Below, piece by piece: positions 23,355 through 32,643 of a stretch of DNA of 34,485 nucleotides (positions are counted from its first letter, which is position 1; every line of letters starts with the position of its first letter). Under the pieces are notes generated by a model. It worked only from the letters and a program-made list of their open reading frames with translations, had not been told where the DNA came from and did not search any database. The DNA is taken from positions 64,001-98,485 of the IMG/VR virus record IMGVR_UViG_3300023179_003795. The stretch is one strand, 5' to 3'. The DNA is from a virus. Its lineage: Duplodnaviria; Heunggongvirae; Uroviricota; Caudoviricetes. Both the position numbers and the translations under genes were made by a program.

Positions 23355-25622
23355 TTAAGAAGTTATTGAAGATTTCATTGCTTCCATTATGTCTGCTGGT
23401 ATTTCACATCCATTAGGTCCACTACAAGATACAGCCCCCATAGTATCCATATTAACATATTCAGGTTGTTTAATTGCTTCATTAAAATCAAAATCTCTTT
23501 GTTTTAATTCACGATTAATTCTAACCCATTTATGATATAAATGTAAATCTTTAATACATAATATCATTTCTTTAACATCACCTTTAAAGAATCTTTTAGC
23601 AAATTGTTTAGCTCTTCTAATCCAATCTTTCTTGATTAAAGCTTCAACTCTTGTTCCTTGTAATTTCAAATCTCTCTTATTTACATAATCACAAGCTTCC
23701 CATAAGTTACCATCAAAAGCGTGTAATCCATCAACAATTAAACCTGAAGCAAAGAAAGCTGCATCATCATATTTATCATATAAATCTTCACCCGATAATA
23801 CCGATGTAAATGGTGCTTGGTTGAAATCTTTATCACCTGTTAAAGGTAAGAATGATACTGCCGCGAATTCAAATCTATTGTTAAATAGATAATCTTCTAC
23901 CACATCATAATCAGAGTAATCTAATTCAACTGTATTAGAAACTGAATGTCTTAAATATGGTTGAACATTTCTTTCGTGATTTGTTCCATACTCAACCCAA
24001 TTGTTTTGGATTGTTTTAACCACTTCTAATTGATTCATACCAACTAAATCTTTCTTGAACTTAGCGTTCTTATTAGCAATTACTGGAATATATGCCACAT
24101 AATCTGTTTTATTAGTACTCCATACAGATTCTTCAATTAAATACGAATGTTCTTCATTTAAGTATTTACCAATACCTGATTGTTTATTGATTTGCATTAC
24201 CCTAAAGTATCTTGGTGCGTGATCTCCGTGACAACCTGAAGGTGATTTTAATAATACCGAAGCATTTCCTGATGGTTTAACACAAGTTGTTCTTGACGCT
24301 GGATTAATACCGATAATTTCAGCCAACTCTTGGTTTACTTTTTTAACTATCTCAGCACCTTTTCTTTGAATTTCAGGATTCATCATAATATGTGGGTTAG
24401 CCATCCAACCTGTAAATGAACAACCTAACAAAGCTTCTCTTCTAAAAATAGCTTCTGTCACTTCACCTAAGTATGGGAAATCAGCGTAACCTGCTTGTAA
24501 TGTTCCTAAGATAGCTAAAGACTCACAAGCTTCATAAAACTTTTCTTCTGTTGTGCACATACCACCATTACCTTCAGTTAAGTTACATCCTTGAAATCCA
24601 CTTAAACCTTCAATTTGAGGGTATAAACCAATTTCAACGCAAGGGTTTGTTACTTGATCTTCATCATCTACAAAATAAAAACCTGGCTCACCAAAATCTT
24701 TAATTGACGTAAATATCTTATTAAATTGTTCTTTTGTTGTGGTGTTTCTGTTGATTACCGCTGAATTATTAGATCTACCTCTTTGTGGATTTTCATAATA
24801 CCAATTACCAACCTTAGCATTCATCATTTCATCATCTTCAGGTGAGAATAAACAAATTGTAGCACTTCTTCTTACACCACCAGATAATACAGCATCCGCC
24901 ATATACATAATGAAGTCATAAGCCATAATAGGTTTCATCACATTAACACCTTGATTTAAGTTTCTTTCAATCAATTCTTCACATTTTAATAATGATTTTC
25001 TTAATCCTTCAGGACCAGGAGCCTTAAATCCACCACTAATCATAGAACCCGCAGGTCTAATTAAACTTAAATCAAATCTAATTTCGTACCCTTGATACTC
25101 AGGAAATGGTGTTTCTTTTCCTTCTTCCACATATGAAGATATTAAAATACCAAAAGTATCACTCCACCCTTCAATAGAATCAGGAACAACAAATGTTTTC
25201 GTTCCTTTAGTTCTTTTTACTAAATTAGGTAATTTACCTATGTGTTTATATTGAACCGAAAATCCAACACCACAACCACATAATAACAAATACATTATTT
25301 CTTGAAAACTTCTAACCCTATCAACATAAGTCGCTGTACAATTATATAACCTCGCATTGTGTTTCATAATTGGATCACCACCAAATTGTAACGCTCTTTG
25401 AGATCCCAATACTAACTTATCTTTATAAGCCCCTTCCGCTTTTTCAAATAATTCTACAAATCTTGGGTTACTTAAAAATTTAGCATACTTTGTTTTATGC
25501 ATGCTCATTACCCTGTTAACCGAATCTTCCCAAGTCTCAGTCCTATTTTCATCATCAATCCATCTCGAATAATCTAAATAATATTTTAAATCACTCGCCA
25601 ATTGAAGTCCATTTTTACTCAT
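23355..25622 (-). CDS. nrdJ: Class II (adenosylcobalamin-dependent) ribonucleotide reductase, monomeric RTPR type
   Basis: RLYNCT, VLSGGVRRSA, TNPCVEI (radical Cys), GCNLTE, CVKPSGNAS and C-terminal SCSGPNGCE redox pair; no small subunit nearby. Confidence 0.85.
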   Translation of the reverse strand: MSKNGLQLASDLKYYLDYSRWIDDENRTETWEDSVNRVMSMHKTKYAKFLSNPRFVELFEKAEGAYKDKLVLGSQRALQFGGDPIMKHNARLYNCTATYVDRVRSFQEIMYLLLCGCGVGFSVQYKHIGKLPNLVKRTKGTKTFVVPDSIEGWSDTFGILISSYVEEGKETPFPEYQGYEIRFDLSLIRPAGSMISGGFKAPGPEGLRKSLLKCEELIERNLNQGVNVMKPIMAYDFIMYMADAVLSGGVRRSATICLFSPEDDEMMNAKVGNWYYENPQRGRSNNSAVINRNTTTKEQFNKIFTSIKDFGEPGFYFVDDEDQVTNPCVEIGLYPQIEGLSGFQGCNLTEGNGGMCTTEEKFYEACESLAILGTLQAGYADFPYLGEVTEAIFRREALLGCSFTGWMANPHIMMNPEIQRKGAEIVKKVNQELAEIIGINPASRTTCVKPSGNASVLLKSPSGCHGDHAPRYFRVMQINKQSGIGKYLNEEHSYLIEESVWSTNKTDYVAYIPVIANKNAKFKKDLVGMNQLEVVKTIQNNWVEYGTNHERNVQPYLRHSVSNTVELDYSDYDVVEDYLFNNRFEFAAVSFLPLTGDKDFNQAPFTSVLSGEDLYDKYDDAAFFASGLIVDGLHAFDGNLWEACDYVNKRDLKLQGTRVEALIKKDWIRRAKQFAKRFFKGDVKEMILCIKDLHLYHKWVRINRELKQRDFDFNEAIKQPEYVNMDTMGAVSCSGPNGCEIPADIMEAMKSSITS

Positions 25623-27691: not shown

Positions 27692-28114
27692 TTACTTTCC
27701 ACTCGAGCCAAATGCTCCATTACCTCTATGAGTTTCACTTAACTCACTCACCTCTTCTAATTCAATAGTTGGGTAAGGTATAACTAATAATTGTCCAATC
27801 TTATCACCAACATCATACACTTCACCATTATCCCAATCCAATTTCTTAAATCTAAACTTGATTTCACCCCTATAACCTGAATCTACAACCCCAACGTGAT
27901 TCGCTAATATTTGTTTTGTTTTACTAATTGATGATCTCGGAAATACTAATCCAACATAACCTTCAGGTATCTCAACAGCAATGTCTGTACCATATTCATA
28001 AAACACTTCACTCTTGACTAATGATGTCGCCACCATATCCATACCAGCATCACCAGGTTTCGCATACTTCGGTGTTACCGCCTTTTCACTTAATTTTTTA
28101 AATCTTACTCTCAT
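27692..28114 (-). CDS. dut: Trimeric dUTPase
   Basis: All five motifs are present: AGMDM, RSSIS, GVVDSGYRGEI, GDKIGQL, RGNGAFGSSG. Confidence 0.95.
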   Translation of the reverse strand: MRVRFKKLSEKAVTPKYAKPGDAGMDMVATSLVKSEVFYEYGTDIAVEIPEGYVGLVFPRSSISKTKQILANHVGVVDSGYRGEIKFRFKKLDWDNGEVYDVGDKIGQLLVIPYPTIELEEVSELSETHRGNGAFGSSGK

Positions 28115-29127
28115 AATATTGCTTTTTTATATAATTTTTTTTCTTTTTCCATGATTATGTAAAATGGTTTAAAAAAATCAATGAATCCCAAATCTGATTT
28201 TGGCATATATGAATAGATACCATCATTTATCATCTGTTTCATTAATACTTTATAATCCCTACCATCAGGATTTAAAACACCATTTATTAATTCATCATCA
28301 ATCCGTTCTTTTACGTTATCAGTTAGCAAAGGTTGGCTTAAATCAATAATCTTTTGATTTGTTATATATAGGTTTTCACCCATCACACCGTGTTTTGATT
28401 TTCCGTTAATGAGATTTCTTAATACTGAAGCATCTCTACCTCTCGATTCAGGTAATAATTGTTTTGCTTTTTCAAATACCCATTCTAATGTTTTTTCTTC
28501 TTTTACTAACTCTGGAAATAACTTAAATAATGTTGCTTCACCCATACCATAAACACCTGCTATGTTATCCGAATTACAACCTGTTAAAACTTTTACTAAA
28601 CATATATTTTTATAATGATAATCTAAATACTTACTCCAATTTTTTTTATTTATGAAATCTCTTTTATCCGCTAAATAAACTTCAGTATTCTCACTAATTG
28701 TTTGTAATATATCCCTATCACCGGTATAAACATATTTATGTTCATTTGGAGTATTTAAACAATAATAAGCAATGGTATCATCAGCCTCAGACCCTTCATC
28801 TTCAAATTGTCTTAAATATAATTCTTCACAATAATATTGGGATTTAATTTTTTGAATGTTAAATTGATAGTCTTTATCAATTTTATTGTTTATCTCTTCT
28901 CGTTGTATTTTGTATTCAGGGTAAAATGTTCTTCTATAATCTTTGGAGTTGGATCCGTCCCAGAAAACTAGCACTTTATCAGGGTATATCTTATTTATCA
29001 TCATCTTTATTGTGATGATAAACTGATATAACCCACCTATCTTATCTTCATTAAAGATAATATTTTTAGCCCCTTTAGTTCCCCTTTTTAATAGATAATT
29101 ACCATCTACCACTAATGTTTTTGTCAT
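28111..29127 (-). CDS. 5'-3' exonuclease/flap endonuclease (T4 RNase H / Pol I N-terminal-like)
   Basis: LVVDGNYL, VFWDG, EADD, TGDRD, and LTGCNSDNIAGVYGMG helix-hairpin-helix motif. Confidence 0.9.
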   Translation of the reverse strand: MTKTLVVDGNYLLKRGTKGAKNIIFNEDKIGGLYQFIITIKMMINKIYPDKVLVFWDGSNSKDYRRTFYPEYKIQREEINNKIDKDYQFNIQKIKSQYYCEELYLRQFEDEGSEADDTIAYYCLNTPNEHKYVYTGDRDILQTISENTEVYLADKRDFINKKNWSKYLDYHYKNICLVKVLTGCNSDNIAGVYGMGEATLFKLFPELVKEEKTLEWVFEKAKQLLPESRGRDASVLRNLINGKSKHGVMGENLYITNQKIIDLSQPLLTDNVKERIDDELINGVLNPDGRDYKVLMKQMINDGIYSYMPKSDLGFIDFFKPFYIIMEKEKKLYKKAIL

Positions 29128-29158
29128 TACTTAATAGTAGTAAAAAATGTCTATAAAA

Positions 29159-29437
29159 TCAAACAATTCTTAAAATACCTTCACCATCTCTCCACACACT
29201 ACCCTCTGTTAATCCTATTGGACTGATAGGTAAATTATTAAACACAATACCACCATTTGTAATTGTATTAGTGTTAATATTATCATAATTTATTTGATTA
29301 TAAATCCTACCATTATTCCCACCATTAACTATATAATTATCAATAGTTAGGTTGGTATTATAGTGTAAATCAATTACACCCGTATTTATATCAATTAAAG
29401 GTTTTTTCCCACCTATTAAATTTTTTAAACTTCTCAT
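29159..29437 (-). CDS. Mini-protein with tail-fibre-like C-terminal motif
   Basis: 92 aa, Asn/Ile-rich, ends LPISPIGLTEGSVWRDGEGILRIV; ATGA-coupled. Confidence 0.55.
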   Translation of the reverse strand: MRSLKNLIGGKKPLIDINTGVIDLHYNTNLTIDNYIVNGGNNGRIYNQINYDNINTNTITNGGIVFNNLPISPIGLTEGSVWRDGEGILRIV

Positions 29438-29673
29438 ACAAATACCCTTCCATTTACATTTGGCATTTGGACAACACCATAATTATTAGGATTTACCTGA
29501 ACGGATGAGTATCTACTACTAATACTCATCACCGGTTCTAATTGAGTCGGTATATATGGAGCAAATACTAAACCAGTATTTAATACGCCAGCATTTCTTA
29601 ATACAGGTTCCCACTCATTGTTTAACACATTTCTTAACTTTCGTTGTGTATTATATTGTTTTATTGTTCTCAT
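29434..29673 (-). CDS. Mini-protein resembling joined N- and C-terminal segments of gp23-type major capsid protein
   Basis: NEWEPVLRNAGVL and GLVFAPYIP...EPVMSISSRY...VNP compared with recalled T4 gp23 NKWKPLLEGEGL and GIYYAPYV...QPVMGFKTRY...INP. Confidence 0.6.
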   Translation of the reverse strand: MRTIKQYNTQRKLRNVLNNEWEPVLRNAGVLNTGLVFAPYIPTQLEPVMSISSRYSSVQVNPNNYGVVQMPNVNGRVFV

Positions 29674-29677
29674 TACT

Positions 29678-29800
29678 ATGAACTACCCAACCACTAAAGA
29701 TGGTTTAGGCTTCCTACTTCTATGAGGGTCTAATGACTTACTCTCCGTAGGCATTACTTCAGGTTGATCCAACCTTAGTGCGTTTAACGCAAATCTTTTT
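29678..29800 (-). ncRNA. Putative omegaRNA scaffold overlapping the tnpB 3' end
   Basis: Successive hairpins TGCGT/ACGCA, AGGTTG/CAACCT, CCTAC...GTAGG enclosing GTC/GAC, and AACCA/TGGTT ending at the right end; the 5' boundary is approximate. Confidence 0.55.
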
Positions 29801-30870
29801 ATATTATTAGCCGCCAATACATCTCTTTCATGTGTTGTCCCACAACTATTACAAGTCCATCCCCTATCTTTTAATGTGAGGTCATTATTTATTACACCAC
29901 ATGAACACATCTTAGAACTAGACTCAAATCTACCTATTTTTAATATATTCACCCCATTCCATTCGGACTTATATTGTAATATATTTAAAAACATCCCCCA
30001 AGATACATCATTTATTGATCTGGCTAATTTATGGTTTTTAACCATTCCTTTTATATTTAAATCTTCTATACAAATAGTTTGGTTTTCACTAACTAGTTTA
30101 GAAGATATTTTATGAATATTATCTATTCTCTGATTGCTTATTTTTTCATGTATTTTAGCAACCTTTATTCTTTGTTTATTTCTATTATTAGAACCTTTTA
30201 CTTTCCTACTTAATTTTCTTTGCTCTCTTTTTAATTTCTTTAATGATTTATTTAAGAACTTATGATTTTCATATTTAACACCATTAGAAGTAATAATAAA
30301 ATCCTTTATACCTAAATCAATACCTATTGTTGTTTCTTCAGTTATACTATTTTTAGGTTTATTATTTTCATTTGTTTCACATAATATACTCACAAAGTAT
30401 TTACCGGTGGGTGTTTTACTTATTGTCGCTTGTCTTATTTCACCATTATGAGGTCTATCTATTTTAATGTTAATACCTTCTTTAAACTTAGGTATTATTA
30501 ATTTATTATCTTTTAATATAATAGATTGTGGTATCTCAAAACTATGATAATTATCACGCTTTGATTTAAACTTTGGAAAACTATTTTGTTTTCTGAAAAA
30601 ATTAGTAAAAGCAATATCTAAATGTCTATTAGATGCTTGTAATGCTTGTGAATTAACTTCTTTTAACCATGAATATTCTTCTTGTTTTTTTAATTCAGTT
30701 AATTGTTTATCTAAGTCAAATTTAGTTAATCTTTGTTTTTCATTCTGATACGCTTTAATTTTCTTACCCAAAGCCCAATTATAGATAAATCTAACAGATC
30801 CAAAGTGTTTATTTAACAATTCGGATTGGTTAATATTAGGGTATAATCTATATTTATATGATTTTAACAT
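29683..30870 (-). CDS. tnpB: RNA-guided endonuclease TnpB
   Basis: N-terminal YKYRLYPN HTH; RuvC residues IGIDLG, ICIEDL and HERDVLAANNI; zinc ribbon CSCG...CNSCG. Confidence 0.95.
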   Translation of the reverse strand: MLKSYKYRLYPNINQSELLNKHFGSVRFIYNWALGKKIKAYQNEKQRLTKFDLDKQLTELKKQEEYSWLKEVNSQALQASNRHLDIAFTNFFRKQNSFPKFKSKRDNYHSFEIPQSIILKDNKLIIPKFKEGINIKIDRPHNGEIRQATISKTPTGKYFVSILCETNENNKPKNSITEETTIGIDLGIKDFIITSNGVKYENHKFLNKSLKKLKREQRKLSRKVKGSNNRNKQRIKVAKIHEKISNQRIDNIHKISSKLVSENQTICIEDLNIKGMVKNHKLARSINDVSWGMFLNILQYKSEWNGVNILKIGRFESSSKMCSCGVINNDLTLKDRGWTCNSCGTTHERDVLAANNIKRFALNALRLDQPEVMPTESKSLDPHRSRKPKPSLVVG

Positions 30871-30876
30871 TCTATA

Positions 30877-30884
30877 TATAAATA
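30877..30884 (-). promoter_or_regulatory. TATTTATA motif upstream of tnpB
   Basis: TATTTATA-tataga-ATG, the same motif and spacing as in front of structural genes. Confidence 0.55.
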
Positions 30885-30928
30885 GTTAAAAATTATAAAA
30901 AGTACTTGTTTTAATTAAAAAAAATTCA

Positions 30929-31174
30929 TTAATGTAAATCATTATTTAATAGGTTTCTAATAATATTATTATCAATATTTCCACTTAATTCTTCACTTAA
31001 CAACCTTGTTAATTCAGCCTCAGCATCTATATTATGAAACGCAGAAATATCTTGAACCATTTCAGGTGTCCAAATCACTCTAATTGATCGAGCACCAACA
31101 TTAACATTAACAGTTCTTAAATTTAATTTAACTTTCCGTTTGTTTTCAATAATGTATTGATTTATAGTTCTCAT
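30929..31174 (-). CDS. Mini-protein containing the spine-helix segment of gp23-type major capsid protein
   Basis: ARSIRVIWTPEMVQDISAFHNIDAEAELTRLLSEEL...ID compared with recalled T4 gp23 SRQLKAAYSIELAQDLRAVHGMDADAELSGILATEI...IN. Confidence 0.75.
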   Translation of the reverse strand: MRTINQYIIENKRKVKLNLRTVNVNVGARSIRVIWTPEMVQDISAFHNIDAEAELTRLLSEELSGNIDNNIIRNLLNNDLH

Positions 31175-32373
31175 TTCAATACCGATCTATAAAATTCCAT
31201 CCTATTTTTTGATACAAAATCTAAGTTATATTTTTCTTTTACAGTTTCATATAACGCTTCACCCATATCTTTTATTTGTTCTGGGTTATTAATTAATTTC
31301 TTAATTGTTTTATGCCAATCTTTATGACTTCTTTTTTGTTCAATTAAAAACCCATTCTTACCATCAATAATATCTTCTGAATATGGTTCAATATGTGACG
31401 CAATTAACGCTTTTTTATGGAAACCCGCTTCCATTACTTTCAAGGATGATTTAACCCTATTAAACTCAGTTTCCACTAATGGTGCTAACGATATATCAAA
31501 GTAGTTATAGTTTGTAGCATATTTGTTAATTGGTAATGTCCATCTTCTTCTATATGGTTCATTCTTATCATCAAAATTACCTTGAGTAAATCTTTCTAAG
31601 TAATTCTTATATTGTGGTGAAATTATATTATAATTATCCGTTACAATCTTTTCATAATCATACCATACAGTTTCGTGTGGTTTAATTGGTTCTTGCATTT
31701 GCTCACCTGTTTGAGCATTTATGGTTGTTTTTGTCCCCCTTAAATCAAAACCACATAACACAAATTGTATTTTACTTATTACATTATTATCACCTGATAA
31801 AACATTTGTTACACCGTGTAATAATTGTAAATCTTTTAAATGTGATGAACCACCTAAATAACCTACACCAATTTTATCGTTTTCTTCTCTATTTGGAATA
31901 AATTGTCTATCTCTTGGATTAATAGCGTTAGGGAATATTACCACATTCTTATTATATTGTCTTATCTTAGAAGCAAAATATTCATTTGTTGTTGTAACAT
32001 AATCAAAAATCTTTAAGTTCTCAACTATTTTTTTATCTATTTGTTGAAATTTTACTATTTGATATAATCCGTGTGATGGATCAACCAACCAATGATCATC
32101 AATATCACCAATAATTATTTGATTTGGATTTTGTTGTTTTAATCTTTTATATATTTCAGGAGTAGCCCCAATATCAGGTGTTAAACTTCTATGACAGAAT
32201 ATAATATTATAATCTTTATACTTTGTAATATCTGTAAAGTCAGATATATCAATAATATCTATATGGATATCATTCTGAAACATTTCTTGTAGATGGACAT
32301 GAGGCCATCTCATTCTGTAAGCACCTACACCTGCCCCATCAATTGTTGTAACCAACATTTTAATTTTACTCAT
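31171..32373 (-). CDS. Glycosyltransferase, GT-B fold
   Basis: DIDDHW, YVTTTNEYFA, VVIFPNAI, GYLGGSSHLKDL and DISLAPL...KSSLKVMEAG...ALIAS motifs. Confidence 0.85.
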   Translation of the reverse strand: MSKIKMLVTTIDGAGVGAYRMRWPHVHLQEMFQNDIHIDIIDISDFTDITKYKDYNIIFCHRSLTPDIGATPEIYKRLKQQNPNQIIIGDIDDHWLVDPSHGLYQIVKFQQIDKKIVENLKIFDYVTTTNEYFASKIRQYNKNVVIFPNAINPRDRQFIPNREENDKIGVGYLGGSSHLKDLQLLHGVTNVLSGDNNVISKIQFVLCGFDLRGTKTTINAQTGEQMQEPIKPHETVWYDYEKIVTDNYNIISPQYKNYLERFTQGNFDDKNEPYRRRWTLPINKYATNYNYFDISLAPLVETEFNRVKSSLKVMEAGFHKKALIASHIEPYSEDIIDGKNGFLIEQKRSHKDWHKTIKKLINNPEQIKDMGEALYETVKEKYNLDFVSKNRMEFYRSVLK

Positions 32374-32412
32374 ACCACATATATAATTAAGACACCAGTA
32401 AAAATAAATATT
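32371..32412 (-). promoter_or_regulatory. Glycosyltransferase promoter/initiation region, copy A
   Basis: Two 16-nt blocks (32371-86 and 32397-412) identical to copy B, with a different 10-nt spacer; contains TATTTATT. Confidence 0.65.
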
Positions 32413-32457
32413 TATAAAAAAATACTATAAAAATCTTGTTTTTTTATTTTTTTTACG

Positions 32458-32465
32458 TATTTATA
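32458..32465 (+). promoter_or_regulatory. TATTTATA motif upstream of the RHH gene
   Basis: TATTTATA-taat-ATG (ATG at 32470). Confidence 0.6.
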
Positions 32466-32469
32466 TAAT

Positions 32470-32643
32470 ATGAGAAATAAAATAGAAGATGAAAAAAAGA
32501 AAGTTAAGGTGAGTATAACTTTAAACCCTGAATTAGATAAGATTATGGGTGAATTACATAAGAATAAATCTAAGTATATCGAACATTTAATTTATAGGGA
32601 TTTATTAAAAAACAATAAAATAAATGAAGATTTCATAATATAA
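32470..32643 (+). CDS. Ribbon-helix-helix DNA-binding protein (not in the ORF track)
   Basis: Hand translation MRNKIEDEKKKVKVSITLNPELDKIMGELHKNKSKYIEHLIYRDLLKNNKINEDFII* (57 aa); alternating beta strand KVSITL then two helices; TAATG overlap with the endonuclease. Confidence 0.7.
   Translation: MRNKIEDEKKKVKVSITLNPELDKIMGELHKNKSKYIEHLIYRDLLKNNKINEDFII

Follow-up and report, generated by a model that had tools for sequence, protein, structure and literature searches.

The window, a 34,485-nucleotide stretch of DNA that forms the terminal 34.5 kb of a 98,485-bp IMG/VR viral contig, carries on its minus strand a cassette of three small open reading frames (ORFs), modules A, B and C, between a glycosyltransferase gene and an exonuclease gene (Table 1). 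Modules A and B are homologous to T4-like phages' major capsid protein (MCP), the cassette varies module by module between related genomes, its modules evolve under selection, and they exchange sequence with MCP genes. The cassette is very probably an array of small, leader-tagged modules that are gained, lost and fused at a repeat, where A and B are internal-deletion derivatives of a Gp23-type MCP and C is unrelated to it, where the modules are kept by selection and in some lineages partly overwritten from MCP genes, and where, uniquely in this genome, an insertion sequence (IS) has landed on the joint of A with B.

The initial annotation of the window had reported three ORFs here, each resembling a different piece of a structural protein. 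All three ORFs are present on the minus strand; the resemblance was borne out by profile searches against Gp23-type MCPs for A and for B, and not for C, for which no structural homology was found.

Capsid fragments in modules A and B

Module A matches the Pfam family Gp23 (PF07068) with E = 1.1e-14 and 55.1 bits, where the cut-off is 24.4, and its residues 12-77 align with positions 131-196 of the 376 in the model. It also matches PHROG 138, the major head protein (E = 6e-13), and a custom hidden Markov model built from 61 full-length MCPs found among related loci (E = 1.3e-22). When the payload of A is mapped onto gp23 of T4, with domain names taken from PMC9546572, it covers a strand of the I-domain linker and P domain, a short acidic helix, and the spine helix. 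In the T4 capsid, the short acidic helix and basic strands join capsomers (PMC9546572), and by our own mapping the elements behind these inter-capsomer contacts, the short acidic helix and the basic strand, both have a counterpart in A. Homologues of A form 47 metagenome clusters with lengths of 44-142 aa, all of which match Pfam Gp23, and the MCP-invariant residues W35, D42, F46, N48, I49, D50, E52 and E54 (W, QD and FHNIDAEAE) are invariant or nearly so among these homologues, down to 41% identity.

Module B of the window has no Pfam match of its own and was matched to the family only by profile methods. Its strands correspond to residues 444-492 of T4 gp23, including the YAPY strand that holds A455. 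Residues 26-73 match some 60 full-length MCP genes at their outermost C-terminal end (tblastn, E about 1e-7), a profile of the B family aligns with the MCP profile at an hhalign probability of 98% (E = 1.4e-13), and the B homologues of relatives score 35.8 and 26.4 bits against PF07068, above the same cut-off, at model positions of about 311-353. Residues 12-30 resemble T4 gp23 4-22 (shuffle p = 0.002), which is suggestive of a fusion in which the C-terminal strands have been joined to the N-terminal helix of the MCP; a helix of this kind occurs in B and also in modules at another locus of a relative, described below. Homologues of B form 22 metagenome clusters, so that neither A nor B is specific to one strain, and no cultured phage was found to carry either of them.

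The Gol peptide of T4 gp23 (residues of about 94-122) activates the Lit protease, and thereby exemplifies a short MCP segment that acts in trans on a host defence protein. The initial annotation had drawn an analogy to Gol, which fails for A and B: A corresponds to gp23 259-307 and B to gp23 444-492 and possibly 4-22, while an equivalent of gp23 94-122 is missing in the window and is confined to further modules that relatives carry. Gol is, furthermore, a native region of the MCP, whereas A and B are separate genes. Both are homologous to defined segments of gp23, which like gp24 belongs to the HK97-fold major capsid and vertex proteins (PF07068), but each retains only about 50 of 520-600 residues: the A and insertion domains are gone, and so is the greater part of the sheet of the P domain. 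Since most of the fold is missing, A and B are, judged by their sequences, homologues of gp23 but not functional members of its family, and cannot build a shell.

A common leader at the modular joints

Modules A, B and C share about nine bases at their start (ATGAGAAC/G) and, in the protein, a short peptide, MRTI(N/K)QY in A and B and MRSLKN in C. The pattern M[RK][TS][ILVY][KNQ][KQNE][YFL] is restricted to these modules in about 440 kb of DNA from five related contigs, and the looser start MR[ST][IL][KRN] is found in 16 of 585 ORFs, 13 of which belong to this family. The initial annotation had noted a non-capsid leader shared by two of the ORFs. That the leader is shared is confirmed at the level of both DNA and peptide, and for all three ORFs; that it is foreign to the capsid has become doubtful, as the N-terminus of B resembles that of gp23.

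The repeated start ATGAGAA(C/G) is also the joint where modules come and go. In genomes without A and B, the end of the glycosyltransferase gene is followed by ATGAGAAG and then by C, and in a genome without B the end of A is followed by TAATGAGAAG and then by C. A nine-base repeat at gene starts can accordingly serve as the joint of a phage gene-cassette array. A further ORF of 108 aa on the same contig but outside the window (G000:C1:29975-30301) starts with the leader MRTLKKQY (ATGAGAACG...) and has a payload without similarity to capsid proteins.

Module C carries the leader on a non-capsid payload. No structural-protein homology and no family was found for it in Pfam, PHROG, tblastn against phages, a search for longer proteins, or the Atlas. 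Three large proteins gave weak matches where their Ig-like repeats begin, and these were considered spurious. Strong constraint is confined to the last 27 codons of C: in its C-terminus the non-synonymous polymorphism pN is 0.064 and the synonymous polymorphism pS 0.29, the middle part is near neutral, and in the leader both are low. Because both types of change are rare there, the pattern suggests that the leader of C is constrained at the level of DNA or RNA. The AlphaFold2 (AF2) model of C has a predicted local distance difference test (pLDDT) score of 51, and its confident part is limited to some 25 residues at the C-terminal end.

Polymorphism among relatives and fragment genes at other loci

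The cassette was read in twelve genomes with the flanking exonuclease, 86-98% identical between them, as the anchor for comparison. Five genomes, this one included, have A, B and C; two have an in-frame fusion of A and B followed by C; one has a short A and C; and four have C alone. Hence B is always accompanied by A, and C, present in 12/12, is the only module found in every relative. The fusions are 114-116 aa long, and one of them is carried on a 286.8-kb ENA contig.

Leader-tagged capsid fragments occur also elsewhere. In G001 (IMGVR_UViG_3300020159_002019), two more such genes lie on the minus strand at 24807-25419, after an Mre11/SbcD-like gene: a 123-aa module with the leader, the N-terminal region of the capsid protein and a remnant of the spine helix, and an 84-aa module with the leader and the VQPM region, which is the equivalent of the Gol segment of T4. 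The first of the two features seen in B, the helix like the gp23 N-terminus, is present in these modules as well. By blastn, this region of G001 has no counterpart in the contig of the window. In G002 (IMGVR_UViG_3300044732_001952), six fragment ORFs form two clusters (41652-42270 and 72711-75174), the first of which comes after two genes of the Mom family of DNA modification. These ORFs span N-terminal, spine-helix, middle and C-terminal parts of the capsid protein, and their order is not colinear with the capsid gene. In a second clade (L221), an A-type gene and an adjacent 94-aa gene carry a different leader, NxFKLGRxN. Distant homologues of A in L221 (2286-2923) and in the P0046 contig start at the stop codon of a group-1 glycosyltransferase (GT1). 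Both genes lie in clusters that also encode a methyltransferase, UDP-galactopyranose mutase, an epimerase and GT2 enzymes. The cassette adjoins genes of self-modification in three contexts: glycosyltransferases, Dam and Mom. These surroundings and the polymorphism between close relatives are compatible with an accessory or counter-defence role, without being proof of it. A 67-aa ORF in G007 with a weak match to Gp23 was considered unconvincing.

A capsid gene split by an intron or in some other way was rejected as an account of the fragments, since their order is not colinear with the MCP, parts of it are duplicated, and A and B have leaders of their own.

Selection and exchange with MCP genes

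The initial annotation had argued that intact starts, stops and coupling of the ORFs speak against simple decay. Under neutral drift in DNA of this AT-rich composition, an ORF of this size stays open with a probability of about 8% at 0.2 substitutions per site and of about 1% at 0.5, while all inspected copies of the modules are open. In this respect the argument stands; the coupling of A to B, by a TAATG overlap that is intact in relatives, is in this genome interrupted by the IS. Judged by the open frames, a cassette produced by simple decay is unlikely.

The ratio of non-synonymous to synonymous substitutions (dN/dS) is 0.03-0.15 in flanking genes, 0.25-0.5 in A and 0.4-0.9 in B and C, and the non-synonymous evolution of the three modules is 5-10 times faster than that of neighbouring genes. 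When independent pairs are pooled, the ratio pN/pS is 0.47 for A (p = 1.3e-7), 0.62 for B (p = 0.008) and 0.67 for C (p = 0.003, Fisher tests). The survey of relatives that the initial annotation had called for therefore gives ratios significantly below one for all three modules, and substitution patterns indicate that they are under weak but significant purifying selection.

Part of the conservation has another source. In G005, module A is 94.8% identical in DNA to full-length MCP genes over 97 nt and module B 91.9% over 111 nt, and alleles of B carry MCP-like tracts of varying length. Because some copies carry tracts that are 92-95% identical to MCP genes, and because alleles of B differ by such tracts, the sequences indicate that gene conversion from MCP genes contributes to the conservation of the modules.

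Possible functions of the cassette

The interpretation that we favour, with a probability of about 30%, is that the cassette encodes accessory, capsid-directed small proteins, akin to the internal-protein cassettes of T-even phages. The common leader, in conjunction with the P-domain contact elements in A and B, would bring the proteins to the prohead or capsid lattice of the phage itself; we infer that the modules are translated, and when, that their products reach the head and are cleaved behind the leader, and that the payload has an activity. The internal-protein loci of T-even phages are polymorphic and have the capsid-targeting sequence MKTYQEFIAE (Repoila et al. 1994, as related in Rao and Black 2010, PMC3012670). 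The internal proteins share only this sequence, and their payloads are diverse and often directed against host defence. Similarly, the genes considered here are small and accessory, with unrelated and fast-changing payloads behind a common short N-terminal leader that sits on capsid (A, B) and non-capsid (C) payloads alike, and the locus differs between close relatives, with four cassette types. When the 585 N-termini in these contigs were compared with the T4 capsid-targeting sequence, verified from ipII and ipIII, the leader of A was the best of all with a score of 19, and the best ORF outside the family scored 14. Nearly all members of the A family have [ILVF]-x-E at residues 8-10, which is the rule of the T4 prohead protease, and the leader of A ends in this motif at residue 10. 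The differences are that the payloads have been cut from the capsid protein itself, for which internal proteins offer no known parallel, that the cassette lies among replication genes, and that packaging and cleavage, as in T-even internal proteins, are for the present modules a prediction.

Several observations weigh against a capsid-directed role. Modules B and C differ from A in having no [ILVF]-x-E site, and the likeness to the T4 targeting sequence concerns ten residues in an AT-rich genome for which T4 is a very distant relative. The AF2 model of a natural A-B fusion has a pLDDT of 40 and no confident fold, and the fragments, on this prediction, may lack structure when alone. A signal of purifying selection could be brought in by gene conversion from the MCP gene, and loss of modules at start codons would preserve the remaining ORFs without selection. 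The neighbours of the cassette are genes for replication and nucleotide metabolism, not head genes. Scans for promoters, terminators and late boxes gave matches at chance level in this AT-rich DNA, from which the timing of expression is unreadable.

Two further systems of T4 invite comparison. In the T4 annotation (NC_000866), the small ORFs alt.-1 and alt.-2 are explained by an old duplication of part of alt, a virion-protein gene, at its beginning. Like them, the modules are short ORFs that stem from an incomplete copy of a virion gene, with new start and stop codons, next to other genes in a genome of T4 type; unlike them, a single case beside the parent gene, the modules form a family at several loci in many phages, with a common leader and measurable selection. 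Soc is an 80-aa dispensable protein that clamps the T4 capsid and binds at capsomer junctions (PMC9546572). The modules have similar size and variable presence, and A retains P-domain elements located at the capsomer junctions where Soc binds, but Soc folds independently and is unrelated to gp23, whereas A and B are derived from it.

Consider then what else could maintain capsid fragments of this kind. Several bacterial sensors recognize conserved MCP cores (PMC13581612), and modules A and B, produced separately from the MCP itself, could be decoys that mimic such a core and occupy sensors (Avs7/8/10, Dsr1, CapRel, Lit-type) without triggering them; the MCP and its mimic would then be kept alike by gene conversion. 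This explanation is possible, though on the unlikely side, and the same holds for its wider form, in which renewable capsid mimics, refreshed by conversion and possibly delivered inside the head, would blunt sensors of the conserved capsid fold; if true, it would be the first case of protein-fragment self-mimicry as a phage counter-defence. That the genes are accessory, polymorphic and fast-evolving fits such a role, as do the retention of MCP-invariant residues in A homologues down to 41% identity, the refreshing of fragment tracts from MCP genes, the richness of the neighbourhoods in self-modification and anti-restriction genes (glycosyltransferases, Dam, Mom), the Gol-equivalent segment in other modules of relatives, and the existence of sensors for conserved MCP cores (PMC13581612). 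Yet the literature searched holds no precedent for a phage-encoded decoy made of MCP fragments, a fragment that binds a sensor might equally well trigger it early, AF2 does not predict the fragments to fold alone, and the non-capsid module C, which has the leader and is the constant member, would be left unexplained. It is unlikely, in turn, that the modules are by-products of recombination with little or no function, i.e., pieces of the MCP gene copied into a hot spot, the ORFs of which are kept intact by recombination at start codons and by conversion. A hot-spot locus with its TnpB insertion, four relatives without A and B, the raised dN/dS with values up to 0.9 for pairs of B and C, the low AF2 confidence and the precedent of alt.-1 and alt.-2 would all agree with it. 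On the other hand, open frames have been maintained across dS values of 0.2-1.4, over which drift is expected to close 91-99% of them; pN/pS is significantly below one even where there is no counterpart in the MCP, as in the C-terminus of C; the family is widespread, with its 47 and 22 clusters; and the design of leader plus payload recurs at other loci and, with a different leader, in a second clade.

Two more specific roles were weighed. Fragments with contact elements could act as dominant-negative pieces that, when a related phage infects the same cell, cap its capsomers or make them pair wrongly, and this is decidedly unlikely: A does keep counterparts of both elements by which T4 capsomers are joined, the acidic short helix and the basic strand, and the genes are accessory and variable, but fragments nearly identical to the MCP genes of their own group would poison the assembly of their own phage at least as well, and no sign of timing or self-resistance was found. 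That an MCP-like peptide serves a glycosyltransferase, which modifies virion or DNA, as adaptor, acceptor mimic or regulator is hardly to be expected. It would account for the position of A-type genes, which start at or within the stop codon of a GT1 gene in three contexts (this clade, L221 and the P0046 contig), two of which, L221 and P0046, lie inside clusters of sugar-modifying enzymes. However, no orthology could be detected among the three GT1 proteins (the glycosyltransferase of the window matches that of L221 with a BLASTP E of 0.09), close relatives retain the glycosyltransferase without A or B, and other genes of the A and B types come after Mom or Mre11-like genes.

Neither payloads cut from a capsid protein nor a family of phage genes composed of such pieces is described in the literature searched, though several bacterial immune systems sense the conserved capsid core. 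The present family is defined, widespread in metagenomes and selected, it has a simple architecture of leader plus P-domain fragment, and it comes with natural variants of presence and absence, fusion and conversion. It therefore offers constructs for probing whether heads take up capsid fragments and whether the assembly or the sensing of capsids is modulated by them. Should the modules be without function, the case would document how closely the debris of recombination in T4-like genomes can look like genes under selection.

The TnpB insertion at the joint of A and B

The element between A and B is of the IS200/IS605 type and encodes TnpB only. Its product has the domains OrfB_IS605 (RuvC; E = 3.7e-27), Cas12f1-like_TNB, a zinc ribbon (E = 1.5e-18), and HTH_OrfB_IS605 (E = 3.8e-18), and matches phrog_506 with E = 5.9e-128. 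The element is absent from the relatives G001, G003 and G004, and the blastn breakpoints against them, 30926 and 29675, fall on the overlap between the stop of A and the start of B. TAATGA is found at both junctions (30926-30931 and 29670-29675), and the allele with an empty site reads TAATGA followed by GAACAATAAAAC. There is a single copy in the contig, the element is peculiar to this genome, and the nearest viral TnpB is at most 56% identical. The insertion does not account for the cassette. That the leaders are by-products of the IS was likewise rejected, since relatives without the IS carry the same leaders.

In having all three domains in one ORF, the element resembles characterized TnpB elements of the IS200/IS605 type, and TnpA, for which no gene lies within it, is missing as in many phage-borne copies. 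No Rfam match, to an omega RNA or otherwise, was found in 29000-31300, and a folding test for such an RNA was not significant (z-score -1.1). The guide of an IS200/IS605 TnpB comes from the 3' flank of its element, and the 3' flank is here the leader of module B. Other module leaders, e.g., ATGAGAACTATAAATC of A, are near-matches to the likely target of TnpB. A CTATTTATA box (30877-30885) ends 6 nt ahead of the tnpB ATG; such boxes occur in the window at chance frequency.

Genomic setting

The contig is rated as 30% complete by CheckV. Since it is 98 kb long, the source is probably an uncultured, large T4-like phage with a genome of about 300 kb. The full-length MCPs that match the fragments come from phages with genomes of about 290-335 kb, in which a gp21-type protease (PF03420) is encoded as well, and for this reason too the contig is regarded as a piece of a large T4-like genome. 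Functions of T4 type in the window include a baseplate wedge protein, ribonucleotide reductase, a DnaB-type helicase, dUTPase and the 5'-3' exonuclease. No full-length MCP was found on this contig or on four related contigs; the head module with MCP and protease lies outside these partial contigs and is seen in more complete, distant relatives. From this follows that phages which assemble their capsids from fragments are very unlikely as an explanation.

On the minus strand, the order of genes is glycosyltransferase, A, tnpB, B, C and exonuclease (Table 1). The glycosyltransferase gene, which is kept in all relatives, lies directly upstream of the cassette, and its stop overlaps the start of A (ATGA). 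The exonuclease gene forms the downstream boundary and is 86-98% identical in 15 relatives.

Table 1. Positions in the window of the cassette modules, their leader DNA, the insertion and the flanking genes
Feature	Positions	Strand	Description
5'-3' exonuclease / RNase H-like, 338 aa	28111..29127	-	Pfam 5_3_exonuc_N, E = 6e-21
Module C, 92 aa	29159..29437	-	Leader MRSLKNLI..KKPL, variable Asn-rich middle, invariant 24-aa C-terminus LPxSPIGLxEGxVWRDxEGILRIV
Module B, 79 aa	29434..29673	-	Leader MRTIKQY and basic stretch, helix like the gp23 N-terminus (12-30), MCP C-terminal P-domain strands (28-73)
TnpB-only IS200/IS605-type element, 1,250 bp	29676..30925	-	TnpB ORF 29683-30870, 395 aa
Module A, 81 aa	30929..31174	-	Leader MRTINQYIIE and basic stretch, then MCP payload equivalent to T4 gp23 259-307
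Leader DNA of A (ATGAGAACTATAAATCAATAC)	31154..31174	-	The leaders, which form the module joints, lie at 29653-29673 in B and at 29417-29437 in C
Group-1 glycosyltransferase, 400 aa	31171..32373	-	Pfam Glycos_transf_1, E = 5.6e-8; phrog_7162 glycosyltransferase, E = 2.6e-48

In the spacer upstream of the glycosyltransferase gene (32360-32470), the minus strand has TATAAATA, which equals the consensus of T4 late promoters, and the plus strand has ATATTTATA.

Two observations concern other genes of the window. An extra ORF of 98 aa lies between the exonuclease and dUTPase genes in L002 (7809-8105) and in L121 (11633-11929); in the window, which is without this ORF, the two genes overlap (28111-28114), and this is another difference of presence and absence within the operon. 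The ribonucleotide reductase of L121 (14618-17389), a close relative, has 923 aa with precomputed Pfam matches to an intein and LAGLIDADG, and that of the window (23355-25622), for which no intein scan was made, has 755 aa and matched only the ribonucleotide-reductase PHROG.

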